The notes under the pieces: model-generated
What the model was told of the DNA's origin: nothing
The model's database searches: none
Seen by the model: only the letters and a program-made list of their open reading frames with translations
Origin: Gammaproteobacteria bacterium
Lineage (GTDB): Bacteria; Pseudomonadota; Gammaproteobacteria; SZUA-140
Direction of reading: 5' to 3'
Length of the DNA stretch: 59,665 nt
Assembly: GCA_003230085.1 (NCBI GenBank)
Contig: QIGV01000129.1
Span: forward strand, 1-59,665
In this document: in pieces, positions 2,366 through 51,976 of the stretch
Numbering within the stretch: the stretch's first letter is position 1
How the letters are laid out: each line of letters begins with the position of its first letter
Program-made: the position numbers and the translations under genes

Positions 2366-3844
2366 ATGGAAGCCTTGCCCCACATCTTGTATCGCGCTTC
2401 ACAGGTTCGTGAGCTGGATCGTATTGCGATCGAGGATTTCGCTATTCCTGGTATGGTTTTAATGGAACGTGCAGGAAAAGCAGCATTCGAGGTATTGCGT
2501 GCCCATTGGCCTGATGCAAGGAGTATCGCCGTACTGTGCGGGACCGGTAACAATGGTGGCGATGGCTATGTCGTGGCGCGTCTCGCCTATGAAGCCGGTC
2601 TTGCGGTCGATGTGCTGCAGCTGGGTGATGTCAGTCGGACGCGGGGTGATGCCCGCAATATGCTTGAAACGATGCGCGGGGCAGGGGTTGTTGAAACGCC
2701 TTACACAGGGCAGCCGCTGCTCGGGTATGACATCATTGTTGATGCATTGCTGGGCACCGGACTGGAGCGCCCGGTCGAGGGGGGCTGGCTGACAGCAATC
2801 AAGGCCATCAATCATAGCAAGGGTCGAGTGTTGGCCATCGATATGCCAACAGGTCTGCATGCGGATAGCGGTAGTGTACTTGGAATGGCTGTTAAGGCAG
2901 ACATCACCATCACTTTCATCGGTGTCAAACAGGGCATGTTAACCGCACAAGGCGTGGAGTCATGTGGCAAACTGGTTTTCAACAGCCTTGATGTACCTGA
3001 CAACGTATTTAGACACATTTCTCCCACAGCGATCACAACTGCTGCCTTCAATCTACGGCGCCTGTTACCACGGCGTAACCGCAATGCCCATAAGGGACAT
3101 TTCGGCCATGTGCTGGTGGTCGGCGGAGATCGGGGTATGTCCGGCGCTGTGCGTCTGGCCGGAGAGGCGGCAATGCGGATCGGGGCTGGTTTGGTCAGCA
3201 TTGCGACACAGCCAGAACATGCAGTAGTGCTTAATCTGATGCGCCCGGAGCTGATGATTCGCGGCGTGACTGGTGCCGCTGATCTCAGGCCCATGTTGGC
3301 ACGTGCCAGTATCCTTGCTATTGGCCCTGGCCTTGGCCAATCCCGTTGGGCGCAGCAAATACTGGCGACCAGCCTGGAAGCCGGGCGTACCATGGTTATT
3401 GATGCCGATGCCCTGAATTTATTGGCGCAGAACCCTGTGCAGCATAATGATTGGATATTGACTCCCCATCCTGGTGAGGCGGCGCGCCTGCTGGGCGTGT
3501 CCATACAGGAGATTCAGGAGGATCGTTTCCAGGCCGCCCGGGAAATTCAGCGTCGCTATGGCGGTATCTGTGTCTTGAAAGGGGCTGGAACCTTGATTGA
3601 TGCCGGTCATCGCGCAACGGTTATTTGCAATGAGGGGAATCCCGGAATGGCAGGCGGCGGAATGGGGGATGTGCTCACCGGTGTTATTGCGGGGCTGTTA
3701 GCCCAGGGGATGACCCCGGTAGCCGCTGCCTGTCAGGGGGTGGCGTTGCATGCCCGGGCGGGTGATCAGGCGGCCCGGCAGGGCGAGCGGGGGCTGTTGG
3801 CCAGTGATCTCATGCCTTGTCTACGTCATTTGGTCAATTTCTGA
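2366..3844 (+). CDS. nnr: bifunctional NAD(P)H-hydrate repair enzyme (epimerase / ADP-dependent dehydratase)
   Basis: N-terminal YjeF_N domain (GTGNNGGDG) plus a C-terminal carbohydrate-kinase-like domain (GPGLG, GGMGDVLTG). The start was set at the ATG at 2366 (MEALPHILY). Position before tsaE matches E. coli yjeF. Confidence 0.9.
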   Translation: MEALPHILYRASQVRELDRIAIEDFAIPGMVLMERAGKAAFEVLRAHWPDARSIAVLCGTGNNGGDGYVVARLAYEAGLAVDVLQLGDVSRTRGDARNMLETMRGAGVVETPYTGQPLLGYDIIVDALLGTGLERPVEGGWLTAIKAINHSKGRVLAIDMPTGLHADSGSVLGMAVKADITITFIGVKQGMLTAQGVESCGKLVFNSLDVPDNVFRHISPTAITTAAFNLRRLLPRRNRNAHKGHFGHVLVVGGDRGMSGAVRLAGEAAMRIGAGLVSIATQPEHAVVLNLMRPELMIRGVTGAADLRPMLARASILAIGPGLGQSRWAQQILATSLEAGRTMVIDADALNLLAQNPVQHNDWILTPHPGEAARLLGVSIQEIQEDRFQAAREIQRRYGGICVLKGAGTLIDAGHRATVICNEGNPGMAGGGMGDVLTGVIAGLLAQGMTPVAAACQGVALHARAGDQAARQGERGLLASDLMPCLRHLVNF

Positions 3845-3848
3845 TTCT

Positions 3849-4292
3849 ATGGAGATCCAATCGGCCGCGGAGATGGAAGCGCTGGGCGCTCGGCTTGCGC
3901 AGTGTATCAGTGAGCCGGTCATGATATTCCTGCGTGGTCCGCTGGGAGCAGGCAAAACAACCCTGGTACGGGGTCTTCTAAGATCTAGTGGCCATCAGGG
4001 CGCCGTTAAAAGCCCGACCTATACCCTGGTTGAGAGCTACGCCGGGAAGGAGTATCAGATTCATCATTTTGATCTATATCGCCTGGGGCACCCCGAGGAG
4101 CTGGAAAATATTGGTATCCGTGACTATCTAGATGGCCGCTCACTATGCCTGGTAGAGTGGCCGGAGCAGGGCGTCAGTATTTTGCCGTCACCGGATCTGG
4201 AGTTGCAACTTGCCTATGCAGGCGAGCGCCGGGATGTCTCGATTAAGGCAGGATCTCCCGCTGGAGCCAATATAATGGCTTGTTTACAGTAG
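3849..4292 (+). CDS. tsaE: tRNA t6A37 threonylcarbamoyladenosine biosynthesis protein TsaE
   Basis: P-loop GPLGAGKTT and the HFDLYRL motif. The start is the ATG at 3849, 5 nt after the nnr stop. The longer ORF-track start overlaps nnr. Confidence 0.9.
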   Translation: MEIQSAAEMEALGARLAQCISEPVMIFLRGPLGAGKTTLVRGLLRSSGHQGAVKSPTYTLVESYAGKEYQIHHFDLYRLGHPEELENIGIRDYLDGRSLCLVEWPEQGVSILPSPDLELQLAYAGERRDVSIKAGSPAGANIMACLQ

Positions 4293-38261: not shown

Positions 38262-38349
38262 GGAGAGGTGGCTGAGTGGTCGAAAGCGGCGGTCTTGAAA
38301 ACCGTTGAGGGGTAACCCTCCCAGGGTTCGAATCCCTGCCTCTCCGCCA
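38262..38349 (+). tRNA. tRNA-Ser (anticodon UGA)
   Basis: The cloverleaf was read by hand. The acceptor stem is ggagagg/cctctcc, followed by discriminator G and an encoded CCA. The anticodon loop is cuUGAaa. A long variable arm (tgaggggtaaccctcc) and the T-arm caggg-ttcgaat-ccctg complete it. Confidence 0.93.
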
Positions 38350-41936: not shown

Positions 41937-42764
41937 ATGACTATGTCCATTATTGAAAATGTCGTAGATACCGAACAATATCTAATCAAAGATGAACCAT
42001 ACTACGAACCGGTGGGACAGGAGTTAGCCTTATACGAATCTGCGTATGAAGTTCGTATGCCTATGATGATCAAGGGCCCTACTGGTTGCGGAAAATCTCG
42101 TTTTATTGAATACATGGCATGGAAGCTGGGTAAGCCGTTGATTACGGTTGCCTGTAACGAAGATATGACCGCCTCGGATCTGGTCGGTCGCTTCTTGCTT
42201 GATAAAGACGGAACCAAGTGGCAGGATGGCCCGCTAACAACTGCGGCGCGTATTGGCGCTATTTGTTACCTTGATGAAATCGTTGAAGCGCGTCAGGACA
42301 CGACAGTTGTTATTCACCCGCTTACCGACCACCGCCGTAGCCTGCCATTAGATAAAAAAGGCGAGTTAGTTCAGGCCCACCCTGATTTTCAATTGGTTAT
42401 TTCGTACAACCCAGGCTATCAGAGTTTAATGAAAGATTTAAAACAGTCGACGAAGCAGCGTTTCGGCGGCCTGTATTTTGATTATCCTGAGGAAAAGATT
42501 GAAATAAATATCGTCTCCAGGGAGTCTGGAGTCGATGCTGAAACCGCAGAAAAACTGGTGCATATCGCACAGCGTGCACGCAACCTGAAGGGTCATGGTC
42601 TGGATGAAGGTATTTCGACGCGCTTACTGGTTTATTCTGGTCAGCTGATCGCTAAGGGTGTGTCACCCCTGGAAGCTTGCAGTATGACGATGGTGACACC
42701 TTTAACTGATGATCCCGACATGCGCGATACACTGAATGCCTCTATTGAAACATTTTTTGGATAG
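41937..42764 (+). CDS. cbbQ: RuBisCO activase subunit CbbQ (MoxR-type AAA+ ATPase)
   Basis: 275 aa with Walker A GPTGCGKS, Walker B CYLDEIVEA and the typical CbbQ/NirQ/NorQ sequence. Confidence 0.93.
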   Translation: MTMSIIENVVDTEQYLIKDEPYYEPVGQELALYESAYEVRMPMMIKGPTGCGKSRFIEYMAWKLGKPLITVACNEDMTASDLVGRFLLDKDGTKWQDGPLTTAARIGAICYLDEIVEARQDTTVVIHPLTDHRRSLPLDKKGELVQAHPDFQLVISYNPGYQSLMKDLKQSTKQRFGGLYFDYPEEKIEINIVSRESGVDAETAEKLVHIAQRARNLKGHGLDEGISTRLLVYSGQLIAKGVSPLEACSMTMVTPLTDDPDMRDTLNASIETFFG

Positions 42765-42869
42765 AACATATCAGGAATATAGTGGCAGTAATATCGCGAG
42801 CTGAAGTATTCGAATTATTAATACTTCTACCTCTACCTCTTGTTGTTCTGGCCATGATAGAAACATTAT

Positions 42870-45212
42870 ATGTCGATAAATCTCGAAGATTACGAGGGTA
42901 TTCTAGCTGAGGCTGCACCAGAGATTCGCGATGTCCTGGAAAGTACCTTTCAGGAAGCATCGCGTGTTATGTCACCTGCTGGTCTGCAAGAATATATGAG
43001 CGGCGCCATAAGTTTATGCAATTTAGGTCGTGGTTCCAATGTGGTGATTTCTTATCTTCAGGAGATGCCGCTGATTGCAAAAGAGTGTGGTGAAGATGTC
43101 ATCAGTGATTGCCTTGCCGCGGCCATGAAACTTTCTTCTATGACCTCCGGTGAGGTGGTTGCACTATTGTTTAGTAGTATGCCAACAGCGGCACGTAATC
43201 TTGGCGATGCTGAACTATTTCGTGGCTATCTAACATTAATACACCAGCTTGCATCAACTGCTTCACGCGGTGTTCGACCAATGCTCAATCATATTGATGA
43301 GTTGTTATCTAAATTAACACTGAGTGGTTTACGTCGCTGGGCGAATTTTGGTGCGCAGGCCTATCGCAGGGATTTTAATAATCTTACAGCTTATTTTAAT
43401 CTTGAATCTGCGGACAGCCGTGCGGTATTACAAAAAGAACGCCGCGGCGTATTATTCATAAAAACTCAACGAAAATTAAATTTTTACCTGCGCGCCTTAT
43501 GGGGGCGAGATTTTTTCTTGCGTCCTACCGGCGCTGACTTCGCGGATTTCCGTCCTTTTATCGAACACCGGATATTGCATCTGCCCGATGCTCTGGACGA
43601 CAGCAGTGATGTTCCGGGCTTAGAGATCTACCGCGCAACGGCTGCACACATGGCCGCACACATGATGTATTCCACGGCACCGATATCAGCCGAGGGTCTT
43701 AGTCCGGCGCAGATGTTTTTCATTGGTCTGGTGGAAGATGCCCGTATCGAATACAAAGCCATCAATGAATTTCCAGGCTTAAAGAAACTCTGGCGTTCAC
43801 TGATGGATGTGGTTAGCGAAGAAAAATCTGAACACCCGACCATGCCATTACTGGAATTATTTGCGATCATGCTGCTGGATGCAACTGTAACGTCGGATGA
43901 TAAAGAGCTGAATGCAATCGCACAAAGATTCCATGATGGCATTCTTGAAAATCAGAACAACAATAATTTCTGCTGGCATCTTGGTCTGGATATTTTTAAT
44001 TGTTTCTCATCGCGAAAAGAAGTGCCAAGTCTGCGTATTCTGGAGCGTATCGATATCCCTTACCGTGACGATAACCGCTATGTCTGGGAGTTTGAAGAAT
44101 TTACCTGGGAAGTCGGGAACGAATATGTGCCAACAAGCCAGCGGCAGGTACGACGTCAGGTCAGCGTCATTGAAATGGCAAACGAGGTCGATTGTGAACT
44201 GGCCGGTGATGACGCGCAGGAAATCTGGACCTGTTCGACCAATATGCGCCCTTATGAAGATGATCTGACCGATGAACAGAAAAGCTTCAATGACATGTGG
44301 GGGAAAGAGCCGGTTTCTGATCCTTATCATTATCAGGAATGGGATTACCGGATTCAACTCCATCGGCCGGATTGGGCAACCATTTATGAACGACGCCAGC
44401 CACGTGGCCATGTCGAGGATATTCAGGCTATCATTGATGCATACAAACCAGTTGCGCATCGCATAAAACAGATCATCGACTTGCTCACTCCGGAGGGAGT
44501 GCAGCGTGTGCGCAATATGGAAGATGGTGACGAAGTGGATATCAACGCTGCCATCGATGCCATGATTGCGGTTCGTATGGGCGAGCAGCCGAACACCCGC
44601 ATTACCATGCGCAATGTATTAAAAACGCGGGATCTGTCGGTCGTATTATTACTGGACCTGTCTGAATCAACCAATGAGCCGATGAATGGTTCAGAAAAAA
44701 CGGTATTACAGCTCACTCGTGAAGCAGCGACCCTGGTGGCGACCGCAATTGAAGGCATTGGAGATCCGTTTGCTATTCACGGTTTCGCTTCCGATGGTCG
44801 TCATGATGTGCAGTATTACCGTTTTAAAGATTTTAATCAGCACTTTGATGACGAAGCAAAATCACGGTTAGCCGGTATGAAAGGTGGTTTGTCAACCCGC
44901 ATGGGTGGTGCCCTGCGTCATGCGGGCTATCACCTGCTAAAGCAGCAGGAGAAGCGTAAATTAGTTTTATTAGTTACTGACGGTGAGCCAGCAGATATTG
45001 ACGAGCGTGATCCACAGCATCTTCGACACGATACTAAAAAGGCAGTTGAAGAACTCTATAGTACGGGTGTTATAACCTATTGTCTGACACTTGATCCAAA
45101 TGCTGATGATTATGTAAAAAGAATATTTGGCGCGAATAACTATACCATTATCGATCATGTCGATAAATTACCAGAACAGTTGCCCGTTTTGTTTGCTAGC
45201 CTGACGGCATAA
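42870..45212 (+). CDS. cbbO: RuBisCO activase adaptor CbbO (C-terminal von Willebrand factor A domain)
   Basis: 780 aa. The vWA/MIDAS motif is VVLLLDLSESTNE. It is paired with cbbQ, as in other form IAq loci. Confidence 0.9.
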   Translation: MSINLEDYEGILAEAAPEIRDVLESTFQEASRVMSPAGLQEYMSGAISLCNLGRGSNVVISYLQEMPLIAKECGEDVISDCLAAAMKLSSMTSGEVVALLFSSMPTAARNLGDAELFRGYLTLIHQLASTASRGVRPMLNHIDELLSKLTLSGLRRWANFGAQAYRRDFNNLTAYFNLESADSRAVLQKERRGVLFIKTQRKLNFYLRALWGRDFFLRPTGADFADFRPFIEHRILHLPDALDDSSDVPGLEIYRATAAHMAAHMMYSTAPISAEGLSPAQMFFIGLVEDARIEYKAINEFPGLKKLWRSLMDVVSEEKSEHPTMPLLELFAIMLLDATVTSDDKELNAIAQRFHDGILENQNNNNFCWHLGLDIFNCFSSRKEVPSLRILERIDIPYRDDNRYVWEFEEFTWEVGNEYVPTSQRQVRRQVSVIEMANEVDCELAGDDAQEIWTCSTNMRPYEDDLTDEQKSFNDMWGKEPVSDPYHYQEWDYRIQLHRPDWATIYERRQPRGHVEDIQAIIDAYKPVAHRIKQIIDLLTPEGVQRVRNMEDGDEVDINAAIDAMIAVRMGEQPNTRITMRNVLKTRDLSVVLLLDLSESTNEPMNGSEKTVLQLTREAATLVATAIEGIGDPFAIHGFASDGRHDVQYYRFKDFNQHFDDEAKSRLAGMKGGLSTRMGGALRHAGYHLLKQQEKRKLVLLVTDGEPADIDERDPQHLRHDTKKAVEELYSTGVITYCLTLDPNADDYVKRIFGANNYTIIDHVDKLPEQLPVLFASLTA

Positions 45213-45968: not shown

Positions 45969-46949
45969 TTACGGTAGTGAAGGGGCTGTGCCGAAATTAT
46001 TGGTGTCCCAATCAAATGGATCGATGATGTCTGAGCTTGGTAGACTCAGTGCGATGAGTTCCGCGCCGACATTCTGATCCAGATTCTTTACTGATTGATA
46101 GTTAAAGCCACTACCATCTACTCCTTTATCCTTGTAAGCAATCCAGGTAGTGGATATCGTGTCGCCATCTGACCAGGTTATGGTTGAATCAAGTGTCATT
46201 TGACCTTGTGTCGTCACTGGGTTTAGCTGCAGGTTTTGCGTCGCTTCATCAAAGCTACCTGCCCAACCACCTCTCTCACGAAAAGCAAAATTCTCTTCTG
46301 CACTGAATGGATCATTGATGTCACCTAATGGCAGCCGCTGATCGATGTCTATTCGTTTGCCGAAATATATTTCGCTGCCTTCGTTAATATCGGTCGTGTT
46401 TTGATATAAAACGAAATCGCTGTTTAAGCCACTAGCATCATTAATTGATTGTGAAATATTCATTTCTGCGATATTGATAAAGTTACCCTGCGTATCAACA
46501 AATGAATTACGGTTAAATTCCGTAATGCTATCAAAAGAATTGTCCAGTTCACGTATATTCTGCTTGAAATTGATATCTATACCCGTCGGGTTGTCCATAG
46601 GGATAAAATTTTCATCCGCAAATGTTAGTGTGTTCGCATTACCCGTAGCACCTGCTTCGGTCACAATAGTGCGGGTGAAGGAGCCATGGGCGGTGTTAAC
46701 CTGTTGTTGGAGGAACCCATCATCATCTACCAGTGTGGTGCAGCTTACTGAACCATTACATGATAATGAGGTATCAATCACACCATTGTTTACGGTCCAG
46801 CCATCAAAAACGACAGCAGGCTGATCTGCCAGAGCAATACTGCATAGGAGCGATGACATTGTCATCATCGCAAATTTTATAGAGGGCAATCTATGGCGTG
46901 GATGATTTGTGTCAAGAGATGACTTGATGTGGGCCTGGTGTGAGATCAT
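45969..46949 (-). CDS. secreted protein of unknown function (c-di-GMP riboswitch-controlled)
   Basis: The start was placed at the ATG at 46949 because AGGAGG lies 9 nt upstream. A charged N-region precedes the hydrophobic core AMMTMSSLLCSIALA. The mature part is rich in N/D/T/S/G. No family was recognised. Confidence 0.65.
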   Translation of the reverse strand: MISHQAHIKSSLDTNHPRHRLPSIKFAMMTMSSLLCSIALADQPAVVFDGWTVNNGVIDTSLSCNGSVSCTTLVDDDGFLQQQVNTAHGSFTRTIVTEAGATGNANTLTFADENFIPMDNPTGIDINFKQNIRELDNSFDSITEFNRNSFVDTQGNFINIAEMNISQSINDASGLNSDFVLYQNTTDINEGSEIYFGKRIDIDQRLPLGDINDPFSAEENFAFRERGGWAGSFDEATQNLQLNPVTTQGQMTLDSTITWSDGDTISTTWIAYKDKGVDGSGFNYQSVKNLDQNVGAELIALSLPSSDIIDPFDWDTNNFGTAPSLP

Positions 46950-47104
46950 GATTATCGTCCTCCTCATTCGTTTTTCGCAGAATCCTGAGTTTTAATGCCC
47001 AGGAATAATGGCGGCGATCGACTCTATGAGGAGGGTAAACCAGAATTACAGCTATAGCAGGGCGTACGGCATTCCATTGCCCATGTGCAGCTGTTGATCA
47101 ATAA

Positions 47105-47208
47105 TCTCTCTGGTAGTCCCGCTGTCATTACACCATCCGAGGGATGGTTTATCAGACCGGTGACTTTGCGTCCCTACCTTTCGGTCAGGTTTGCCTTTAT
47201 CTGAGCAT
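47105..47208 (-). ncRNA. c-di-GMP-I (GEMM-I) riboswitch aptamer
   Basis: The minus-strand RNA reads GAUAAAGGCAAACCUGACCGAAAGGUAGGGACGCAAAGUCACCGGUCUGAUAAACCAUCCCUCGGAUGGUGUAAUGACAGCGGGACUACCAGAG. The blocks GGCAAACC, a GAAA tetraloop, GGGACGCAAAG, CACCGG, AAACCAU and AGCGGG..UACC appear in the same order and spacing as in the V. cholerae Vc2 aptamer recalled from memory. Confidence 0.85.
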
Positions 47209-47219
47209 CTTCAGGAGAA

Positions 47220-47246
47220 GCTATCGGCTAGTTTCCGGGATTCTTT
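47220..47246 (-). promoter_or_regulatory. sigma-28 (FliA) promoter: TAAAGAAT-N11-GCCGATAG
   Basis: The reverse complement of 47220-47246 is TAAAGAATcccggaaactaGCCGATAG. Against the consensus TAAAGTTT-N11-GCCGATAA, it matches 6/8 in the -35 and 7/8 in the -10, with exact 11-nt spacing. The predicted transcription start falls a few nt before the riboswitch. Confidence 0.75.
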
Positions 47247-47264
47247 AACCGGAGGTCCCCTAAT

Positions 47265-47627
47265 CTAGCCTAGGACTTCATTGATGGAGGAAATCAGCTG
47301 ACTGGGATTGAAAGGTTTTACCAGCCATCCTGTAGCACCTGCTTCTTTACTCTGTCGTTTTTTTTCAGCAGTGGACTCCGTGGTCAGCATTAATATTGGA
47401 GTGTATTTATAGTCAGGAAGATTTCTCAACTCACGTATCAGTGAGATGCCGTCCATTTTAGGCATATTAGCATCGGTAATGATAAGGTTGACCTTGTTTG
47501 TTTTGGCCTGTGACAAGGCGTCTTGGCCATCAACCGCTTCAACGACGGTATGTCCGGCATTCTTCAATGCAAAAGAGACCATCTGCCGCATGGATTCAGA
47601 ATCATCAACCGCGAGAATGCTTGCCAT
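47265..47627 (-). CDS. single-domain CheY-like response regulator
   Basis: 120 aa with the acidic pocket DDS, phospho-acceptor ITDANMPKMDG, T (LMLTT) and K (VKPF). It is CheY-like, but orthology to chemotaxis CheY is not proven. Confidence 0.85.
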   Translation of the reverse strand: MASILAVDDSESMRQMVSFALKNAGHTVVEAVDGQDALSQAKTNKVNLIITDANMPKMDGISLIRELRNLPDYKYTPILMLTTESTAEKKRQSKEAGATGWLVKPFNPSQLISSINEVLG

Positions 47628-47749: not shown

Positions 47750-47866
47750 AAAAACAGGAAGAATATAAGTTTTTCGGGATAGGGCGTTATAGTAGAGAAT
47801 GTGGGACCTCAAGTGCTACTTGAGGTTAAGAATCAAAGTAGCATTTTACTATCAGGTAAGACTTGA

Positions 47867-49389: not shown

Positions 49390-49493
49390 GGTTTCTGATG
49401 CCTAAACACTTTATCCTAATGGCCCATCTGGCCATATAAAACATACATAAATCATGCCAACACTGGGTCGGCCTTGGGTTATTCAGCGTTAAC

Positions 49494-49520
49494 TTAAGAA
49501 TTATCTGATGAAGTCGATAA
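49494..49520 (+). promoter_or_regulatory. candidate sigma-28 promoter of cheV-cheR (TTAAGAAT-N11-GTCGATAA)
   Basis: The -10 matches 7/8 and the -35 matches 5/8 to the FliA consensus, with exact 11-nt spacing. It lies 36 nt upstream of the cheV ATG. Confidence 0.55.
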
Positions 49521-51527: not shown

Positions 51528-51543
51528 TGGCATAGCAATTGCT
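51528..51543 (+). promoter_or_regulatory. sigma-54 promoter TGGCAT-N5-TTGCT upstream of flgB
   Basis: tggcatagcaattgct has the GG and GC dinucleotides at the canonical -24/-12 spacing. It lies ~26 nt upstream of the flgB start. Confidence 0.75.
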
Positions 51544-51568: not shown

Positions 51569-51976
51569 GTGGAGTCAATTCAGACAGTGAATATCGACAA
51601 GGCATTCGGGATACACGCAAAGGCTTTGGAGTTGGGCGCCCAGCGTGCCCAGGTTTTAGCCGCCAATCTCGCGAATGCCGATACGCCCAACTATAAGGCA
51701 AAAGATATTGATTTCAAGACTGCGCTAACGAATGCCAGTCAGCAGGGAATATCAATGAAGACAACAAACAGTATGCATATCAGCAGCAATTCATCGCCTG
51801 GCACACAGGTTGATACCTATTACCGTAATTCCCAGCAGCCTACGTTGGATGGTAATACAGTGGATTCACAAATCGAGCAGGCTCAGTTCATGGAGAATGC
51901 AATTCGTTATCAGACGACAATAACCTTTCTAAGTGGCAGCGTCAAAGGCCTGCTATCTGCGATCAGAGGAGAATAA
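51569..51976 (+). CDS. flgB: flagellar basal-body rod protein FlgB
   Basis: It carries QVLAANLANADTPNYKAKD and the C-terminal rod motif. The start codon is GTG and the exact start is uncertain. Confidence 0.9.
   Translation: MESIQTVNIDKAFGIHAKALELGAQRAQVLAANLANADTPNYKAKDIDFKTALTNASQQGISMKTTNSMHISSNSSPGTQVDTYYRNSQQPTLDGNTVDSQIEQAQFMENAIRYQTTITFLSGSVKGLLSAIRGE

Follow-up and report, generated by a model that had tools for sequence, protein, structure and literature searches.

In a 59,665-nt stretch of DNA from a gammaproteobacterium (contig QIGV01000129.1; hereafter, the window), a promoter of the class recognised by sigma-28 (FliA), the flagellar sigma factor, is predicted to stand directly in front of a GEMM-I riboswitch for cyclic di-GMP (c-di-GMP), and both precede a gene for a predicted secreted protein. 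We consider it very likely that this succession of FliA-dependent promoter, GEMM-I leader and gene forms a two-input gate, through which the gene would respond both to the assembly state of the flagellum and to the level of c-di-GMP. Its sequence and position, its conservation and the host context place the element in the sigma-28 promoter class; from these data we infer where transcription would start, that it would depend on FliA, and that the aptamer would bind its ligand. The parts of the unit are as follows.

47221–47247, minus strand: sigma-28 (FliA)-type promoter, from sequence reading, position weight matrix (PWM) and ortholog conservation.
47211–47214, minus strand: predicted transcription start, 7–10 nt 3' of the -10 box by the usual sigma-28 geometry.
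47109–47205, minus strand: GEMM-I (c-di-GMP-I) aptamer, RF01051, 67.7 bits against a gathering threshold of 35, E = 3.9e-11.
46950–47108, minus strand: linker and expression platform, ~160 nt, from folding and a terminator search.
45969–46949, minus strand: riboswitch-controlled gene for a signal-peptide-bearing, all-beta protein of 326 amino acids, from an AlphaFold2 (AF2) model and homolog search.

Read along the minus strand, the promoter region runs GG-TTAAAGAAT-cccggaaacta-GCCGATAG-cttctcctgaagatg-CTCAGATAAAGGCAAACC. The -35 box TAAAGAAT occupies 47247–47240 (T47247-AAAGAAT-47240) and the -10 box GCCGATAG occupies 47228–47221 (G47228-CCGATAG-47221), with the 11-nt spacer cccggaaacta (47239–47229) between them. 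Against the sigma-28 consensus TAAAGTTT-N11-GCCGATAA, the -35 box agrees at six of eight positions and the -10 box at seven of eight, at the canonical 11-nt spacing. A preliminary description of this DNA, made from the letters alone, had proposed exactly such an element on the minus strand, and the sequence bears it out, although the coordinates given then (47220–47246) were off by one base. The distances also needed correction: the -35 box starts 17 nt, not 19 nt, past the TAG stop codon (47267–47265) of the preceding CheY-like open reading frame (ORF), and 15 nt, not ~12 nt, separate the end of the -10 box from the Rfam start of the aptamer. From CGATA to the GGCAA core of the aptamer the distance is 26 nt. 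Promoter, aptamer and ORF share one strand, and a search of the 60-nt spacer before the aptamer found no sigma-70-like site. Sigma-28 promoters usually start transcription ~7–10 nt past the -10 element; with a predicted start at 47211–47214, the leader would begin at about ..UGAAGAUGCUCAG.

Plain pattern counts were uninformative. The 27-nt pattern with up to three mismatches matched once in the window against 0.55 expected, at least one match occurred in 41 of 100 shuffles, and GCCGATA alone matched 10 times against 6.9 expected. We therefore relied on PWM ranking and comparative analysis instead. The PWM was derived from 99 independent, unrelated sites, found in the genome scan described below, at which a sigma-28-type promoter precedes a GEMM-I aptamer. 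With a score of 22.0 bits, the promoter is the top-ranked site in the window on either strand, and it exceeds every one of 30 window shuffles (maximum 17.3 bits, mean 11.6).

Conservation in relatives places the predicted promoter well beyond chance. We compared nine independent genomic contexts of the gene family, whose members derive from hydrothermal-vent and other environmental metagenomes. A GEMM-I aptamer precedes the gene in six of the nine (homologous aptamers in L001, L003, L006, L012, L013 and L014), and in all six TAAAG-N16/17-CGATA is kept upstream of the aptamer, at 15.5–20.3 bits, with the -10 block ending 21–26 nt before the GGCAA core. The proteins of these six loci are 43–72% identical, and the promoter spacers of distant members are nearly random relative to one another (identity ~0.30). 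The 5' leader sequence AGATGCTCAGA is the same in the window, L001 and L003. To the left lies, depending on the locus, a gene for a CheY-like protein, for flagellin or for a response regulator, or cheB, or unrelated genes 420–770 nt away. The bare core was found nine times, against ~0.8 expected, in 288 kb comprising both strands of the window and the family loci; eight occurrences lie upstream of riboswitches and the ninth lies upstream of a flagellin gene. This last site, in L001, carries the same core 75–77 nt before the ATG (20.1 bits) and, as a putative flagellin promoter, serves as an internal positive control for the sigma-28 consensus used in these genomes.

Orthologs that lack a riboswitch tend to keep the promoter as well, with a sigma-28-like site 30–49 nt from the start codon. 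In L004/L005, the -10 box GCCGATAA lies 49 nt from the ATG (L004 3923–3951), and L008 has CTAAAGTTTT-N10-ACCGCTAA (19.8 bits; 3943–3970). The most distant homolog, L010, has neither promoter nor riboswitch and adjoins a GGDEF-EAL gene. Thus a sigma-28-like promoter precedes the gene in eight of the nine independent family loci, two of them without a riboswitch, and the gene is therefore a candidate member of the FliA regulon in its own right; within this family, the tie to sigma-28 seems to predate the riboswitch or to be more widespread than it. Gene linkage points the same way. Flagellar or chemotaxis genes adjoin five of the nine family loci: flgA-flgM-flgN and the CheY-like gene precede the window locus, cheD-cheB-flagellin precede L001, a run of a methyl-accepting chemotaxis protein gene with cheR-cheD-cheB precedes L003 and L004, and a response regulator precedes L013. 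No such linkage was seen for L006, L008, L010 and L012. Together, the linkage and the promoter in eight of nine loci support the earlier proposal that the gene is a candidate late member of the flagellar regulon.

In the window, the unit follows directly on a flagellar gene run, the last gene of which is listed here.

47265–47627, minus strand: CheY-like single-domain response regulator (Response_reg, 2.8e-28), last gene of the flgA-flgM-flgN-response regulator run.

The flgA, flgM (TIGR03824, 4.6e-22) and flgN genes lie directly upstream on the same strand, with flgM/flgN ~1 kb from the promoter, and cheV-cheR-flgBCDE diverge on the opposite strand. Three further promoter-like sites were noted in this region. 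The second-best PWM match in the window, CTTAAGAATTATCTGATGAAGTCGATAA at 49493–49520 (+; 15–16 bits), lies between flgA and cheV, ahead of cheV, and it implies that cheV starts at ATG 49556 (Shine-Dalgarno (SD) sequence AGAGGA) and not at 49508, the start given in the automatically generated ORF list. A near-consensus sigma-54 promoter, TGGCATAGCAATTGCT (TGGCAT-N5-TTGCT), lies at 51528–51543 (+), 26 nt before the flgB ORF start at 51569. A weaker sigma-28-like site, TTAAAGTT-N12-GACGTTAA at 47750–47722 (−; 12.7 bits, N17), precedes the CheY-like gene by ~95 nt; any read-through from it into the riboswitch would be FliA-linked as well. The sigma-54 and sigma-28 sites of the window, along with the flgA-flgM-flgN / cheV-cheR-flgB layout, suggest a sigma-54/sigma-28 hierarchy in the style of Vibrio and Pseudomonas.

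The aptamer is classed as GEMM-I by its covariance-model score and its core nucleotides, and is a putative c-di-GMP binder. It covers model positions 1–87 of 87, with RF01051 the best family in clan CL00126. In the cmscan alignment, AAAGGCAAAC, GGGACGCAAAG and ACAGCGGGACU agree with the consensus cores AAAGGCAAA, GACGCAAAG and AGCGGG. By comparison with the Vc2 structures, the ligand contacts G20, A47 and C92 (Vc2 numbering) would correspond to the G that precedes the GC pair in AAAGGCAAA, to the A of GACGCAAAG and to the C of AGCGGG.

Downstream of the aptamer, the linker folds better than its shuffles (z = -3.8). In both the minimum free energy (MFE) and centroid folds, a predicted 9-bp helix, CCUCCUCAU (47034–47026) with AUGAGGAGG (46967–46959), buries the SD sequence; its 5' strand is the anti-SD CCTCCTCAT (47034–47026) and its 3' strand lies in the SD-containing ATGAGGAGG (46967–46959). 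A second helix, ACCAGAG (47114–47108) with TTCTGGT (47045–47039), lies within or flanks the linker; according to RNAalifold on the window, L001 and L003, this conserved ACCAGAG/UUCUGGU pairing joins the 3' tail of the aptamer to the region just 5' of the anti-SD. A hairpin that sequesters the SD is predicted in all six family leaders, built from differing sequences, with an SD unpaired probability of 0.03–0.26. L001 and L003 show a candidate P1 (GAUGCUC / GAG..CAUC), which is unconvincing in the window. A search for an intrinsic terminator in the leader found none, and because of this, translation initiation is probably the level of control. The direction of the switch is nearly even; we lean weakly towards an OFF switch, with expression only in motile, low-c-di-GMP cells, because the aptamer-folded MFE structure keeps the SD sequestered and because the logic would be coherent.

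The regulated gene probably starts at ATG 46949, 9 nt past the SD. Its 326-residue product has no Pfam or NCBIfam domain and only 15 homologs among 5.8 billion clustered proteins. The confident AF2 model (predicted local distance difference test score (pLDDT) 78) consists entirely of beta-strands, with residues 1–47 disordered or forming a signal peptide and with long antiparallel strands at a pLDDT above 90 from residue ~140 to 326. A Foldseek search of the PDB returned nothing significant; the best hit (E = 0.13, TM < 0.3) weakly resembled outer-membrane barrels. Cys64 and Cys70 are invariant in the family alignment, which also has a conserved C-terminal motif, DPFxWD..GxxPxLP. On these models and alignments, the family is one of orphan, predicted secreted proteins that are tied to motility loci and have no detectable relatives in sequence or structure.

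Several observations weigh against the proposed gate. The -35 box TAAAGAAT departs from the consensus at two of its eight positions, the raw pattern match taken alone is not significant, and the fliA gene does not lie within the 59,665 nt of the window. A search between the stop of the CheY-like gene (47265) and the aptamer (47205) found no terminator-like site, and therefore read-through transcripts probably carry the riboswitch too. With the aptamer forced or forbidden in a constrained partition function, the SD was sequestered alike; the forbidding constraint held the aptamer wholly unpaired, which is perhaps too strict, and this folding was not relied on. Lastly, RNA stability or Rho termination could be the regulatory level instead of translation. 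The lack of a terminator and the raw pattern count also speak for an alternative that we regard as improbable, namely that the riboswitch RNA arises solely by read-through from the flgM-flgN-CheY-like operon and that TAAAG/CGATA is not a functional promoter; the weaker site at 47750–47722 could supply such transcripts. However, the motif keeps its distance from the aptamer at L001, L003, L006 and L012, which have flagellin, cheB or an unrelated gene 420–770 nt off on their upstream side, and it is kept directly before the gene in riboswitch-less orthologs. Conservation of the boxes against ~30% identity in the spacer would, moreover, be unexpected for non-functional DNA. Read-through can also coexist with the promoter, and would itself probably be FliA-dependent.

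Two other explanations accept the conservation of the motif and assign it differently. The promoter might be real and yet be read by another alternative sigma factor or depend on an activator, so that the gene would not be co-regulated with the late flagellar genes. The departures in the -35 box and the lack of fliA in the window would fit this, and some bacteria carry several sigma-28-family paralogs, such as WhiG with its non-flagellar targets (PMC8325347, PMC7005675). We nevertheless think it quite unlikely, given flgM, the anti-sigma-28 gene, 1 kb upstream, the identical core before flagellin in a close relative, and the chemotaxis or flagellar genes beside more than half of the family loci. 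Least plausible to us is that TAAAG...CGATA belongs to the RNA, as an extended P1/P0 or a protein-binding site, with transcription from a sigma-70 promoter further upstream. The motif does lie directly 5' of the aptamer, riboswitch flanks are often conserved, and the three closest relatives share the 5' flank AGATGCTCAGA. Yet no sigma-70-like site was found in the upstream spacer, and only 17 nt lie between the element and the preceding stop codon. Positions left unspecified in the scan give the sigma-28 DNA consensus in 99 unrelated leaders, a distance to the aptamer that varies from 10 to 38 nt suits a promoter and not a structured RNA, and the same motif stands before flagellin and in riboswitch-less orthologs.

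In the two-input gate that we favor, the sigma-28 holoenzyme (E-sigma28) would start transcription at about 47211–47214, 7–10 nt past the -10 box by the usual geometry. Transcription would be licensed only once FliA is freed from FlgM, that is, when the hook-basal body is complete. The 5' end of the mRNA would be formed by the GEMM-I aptamer, followed by the ~160-nt linker with the SD in its hairpin and then by the gene for the secreted all-beta protein. The aptamer would fold in the nascent RNA, and its occupancy by c-di-GMP would set the amount of protein, most likely at translation initiation.

The same pairing recurs widely among bacteria. We scanned 185,579 genomes, one per species, for the pattern TAAAG-N16-CGATA-N8-38-GGCAA-N12-30-ACGCAAAG, and obtained at least 120 matches where roughly 10–20 were expected by chance. 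Among the 121 matches listed, 99 have the canonical aptamer spacing N18/19 and 22 have another spacing. At positions that the pattern left unspecified, the 99 are strongly biased: C precedes TAAAG in 67, G19 and C20, just before CGATA, occur in 71 and 82, and T+6 in 64, T is favored at +6 to +8, and A follows CGATA in 51, giving the consensus cTAAAGxTTT...tGCCGATAa. The 22 matches with odd spacing show no such bias and provide an internal control, and we therefore regard the 99, on their base composition, as real sigma-28-type promoters, although a few, such as the Hydrotalea loci, are probably chance matches. From promoter to aptamer core, the distance among the 99 listed is 10–38 nt. Rfam placed an aptamer of the GEMM-I clan (RF01051, or the RF03167 'GGC' variant) at the expected position in all 18 representative loci. 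Hosts among the matches listed are Actinomycetota (~35), Desulfobacterota (~26) and Betaproteobacteria such as Nitrotoga and Thiobacillus (~11), together with Nitrospirota, Armatimonadota, Bacillota, Atribacterota, Chloroflexota and Acidobacteriota; the pairing occurs in at least nine bacterial phyla. In a sample of 115 metagenomic GEMM-I cores, drawn with no promoter requirement, one strong and two moderate sigma-28-like sites were found within 100 nt upstream, and no such site was found in two control sets to this sample. We estimate that the sigma-28-promoter class makes up about 1–3% of GEMM-I aptamers, a minority that nonetheless recurs widely.

The genes behind these leaders are varied. 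The 84 first downstream ORFs among the matches listed include 23 type IV pilin-like (N_methyl), five FlgM, five fn3, four DUF1631 and three TadE proteins, the rest including response regulators, HDOD proteins, S8 peptidases and GGDEF/EAL proteins. FlgM is a classic sigma-28 target, and in Armatimonadota metagenome-assembled genomes (MAGs) a sigma-28-type promoter and a GEMM-I or GEMM-I-GGC aptamer stand directly before flgM, which is monocistronic in L083. The flgM cases are these.

L015, 4428–4949: flgM case.
L083, 1092–1613: flgM case.
L123, 735–1259: flgM case.
L090, 1590–2115, minus strand: flgM case.
L031, 2273–2704, minus strand: flgM case.

A description of a riboswitch-flgM arrangement was not found in the literature. 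A c-di-GMP riboswitch before flgM could feed back on sigma-28 activity and, if so, the flgM cases would be an RNA-based route for such feedback. The pilin-like cases have G-F-T-L-[IV]-E N-termini and come mostly from Solirubrobacterales, Thermoleophilia and other Actinomycetota; examples follow.

L016, 7178–7846: pilin-like gene behind promoter and aptamer.
L025, 4510–5153: pilin-like gene behind promoter and aptamer.
L028, 840–1497: pilin-like gene behind promoter and aptamer.
L066, 4778–5418: pilin-like gene behind promoter and aptamer.

With moderate confidence, we propose from these surveys that the sigma-28-family promoter followed by GEMM-I is a widespread module, which would put pilins, surface proteins and (in Armatimonadota) FlgM under c-di-GMP control one step after the flagellar or WhiG sigma factor; the gene family of the window would be a core member of the sigma-28 regulon in Gammaproteobacteria-like organisms of vents and sediments. 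Both parts are textbook elements. What appears to be new is their combination, which is not unique to the window and represents a previously unremarked general architecture. A search of the full-text literature outside subscription-only sources found no description of a sigma-28, SigD or WhiG promoter in front of GEMM-I, an arrangement that the preliminary description had likewise taken to be undescribed; judged by the scan, it is far more general than was supposed there.

Known systems resemble the unit in part. In Clostridioides difficile, the Cd1 (Cdi1_3) GEMM-I riboswitch lies upstream of the flgB operon, where high c-di-GMP lowers flagellar expression, and all 13 predicted promoters of c-di-GMP riboswitches are sigma-A promoters (Table 2, PMC3649979). 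As in the window, a GEMM-I aptamer ties c-di-GMP to the flagellar regulon; however, Cd1 is driven by sigma-A, precedes sigD and thereby puts the sigma factor itself under its control, and acts by transcription termination, whereas the riboswitch in the window follows the sigma-28 promoter, lacks a terminator and serves a single, predicted non-flagellar secreted protein. The GEMM-I RNA merRNA of Bdellovibrio bacteriovorus is made only in the motile attack phase, a programme dominated by FliA-type promoters (TTAAG-N16-CCGATA), but is not itself marked as FliA-driven in Table 2 of that study (PMC3627812). It has no downstream ORF and was proposed to be a c-di-GMP sponge, in contrast to the consensus sigma-28 promoter and conserved downstream ORF of the window. 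The Vc1 (gbpA) and Vc2 (tfoY) riboswitches of Vibrio cholerae, a motile proteobacterium with polar-flagellum-type regulation, share long GEMM-I leaders and the lack of an intrinsic terminator with the window and control secreted or motility-linked factors post-transcriptionally (PMC4744006, PMC4545359, PMC7371385). Unlike in the window, no sigma-28 promoter is given for them in those papers, where sigma-28/FliA appears in unrelated contexts only, and the genes behind them bear no relation to the family in the window.

The sigma factor WhiG of Actinomycetota is under c-di-GMP control by way of the protein RsiG (PMC8325347, PMC12871210), and start-site-mapped WhiG promoters (TAAA / GCCGATAA) drive type IV pilus genes in Rubrobacter (PMC8325347). 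There, as in the window, c-di-GMP and a sigma-28-family factor converge on the same genes, but c-di-GMP arms an anti-sigma protein, whereas in the window it would act on the mRNA after sigma-28-dependent initiation. The two papers do not mention riboswitches (0 occurrences; PMC8325347, PMC12871210). Our scan placed a sigma-28-type promoter and GEMM-I before pilin genes in many Actinomycetota and found one such pairing in a Rubrobacter MAG, so that actinomycetotal pilins may receive c-di-GMP input twice, once via protein (WhiG/RsiG) and once via RNA. The published mapping of WhiG start sites in R. radiotolerans (PMC8325347) may already hold experimental proof, and existing data of this kind, such as Rubrobacter Cappable-seq, may hide an overlooked riboswitch. 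The Rubrobacter sp. MAG locus (L043 3158–3272, minus strand) has a sigma-28-type promoter and GEMM-I-GGC before a 190-aa ORF with no Pfam match. Classical class III/IV promoters of the FlgM-FliA system in E. coli, Salmonella and Vibrio have the same TAAAGTTT-N11-GCCGATAA form and, like the promoter in the window, lie beside flgM/flgN and cheV/cheR. Those late promoters, however, serve genes for flagellin, the motor and chemotaxis, whose leaders are short and unstructured, whereas the promoter in the window precedes a predicted second-messenger-sensing leader and an uncharacterised secreted protein.

The c-di-GMP network and the FlgM/FliA checkpoint are the two best-known controls of the decision to swim or to stick, and are usually described as working on separate layers, either via proteins (FleQ, YcgR and RsiG among them) or, as in C. 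difficile, via a riboswitch above the sigma gene. A riboswitch right behind a sigma-28 promoter would be a compact two-input gate that reads flagellar assembly and the second messenger on one mRNA. Depending on the direction of the switch, such a gate could reserve genes for committed swimmers, or for flagellated cells that sense a rise in c-di-GMP, for example on surface contact. It offers a testable design principle and a sequence signature for motility-to-attachment genes in uncultured bacteria.

Some loci of the scan are unusual in other respects. L133, an Anaerolineales contig, holds two units of sigma-28-type promoter and GEMM-I (216–354 and 3339–3470, plus strand) with near-identical promoters (GTAAAGAA..AGCCGATAAC), the first of which precedes an 884-aa ORF. 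A Geobacter MAG (L077 3454–4643, plus strand) carries four GEMM-I-GGC aptamers within 1.2 kb in a tandem array with short ORFs, and the exact sigma-28 core of the scan pattern occurs only at the aptamer at 3686. In a Nitrotoga MAG, a group II intron D1-D4 (RF02003, 61.8 bits; L070 3213–3331, plus strand) lies ~700 nt from the leader with the sigma-28-type promoter and GEMM-I. Elsewhere in the window, a CbbQ/NorQ-like AAA+ gene and a gene for a 780-aa VWA protein (NorD/CbbO-like) lie at 41937–45212 (+), just beyond the riboswitch-controlled gene and unrelated to it. A tRNA gene with a long variable arm lies at 38262–38346 (+; 85 nt, 62.3 bits); its anticodon loop reads CUUGAAA, and it is probably tRNA-Ser(UGA).

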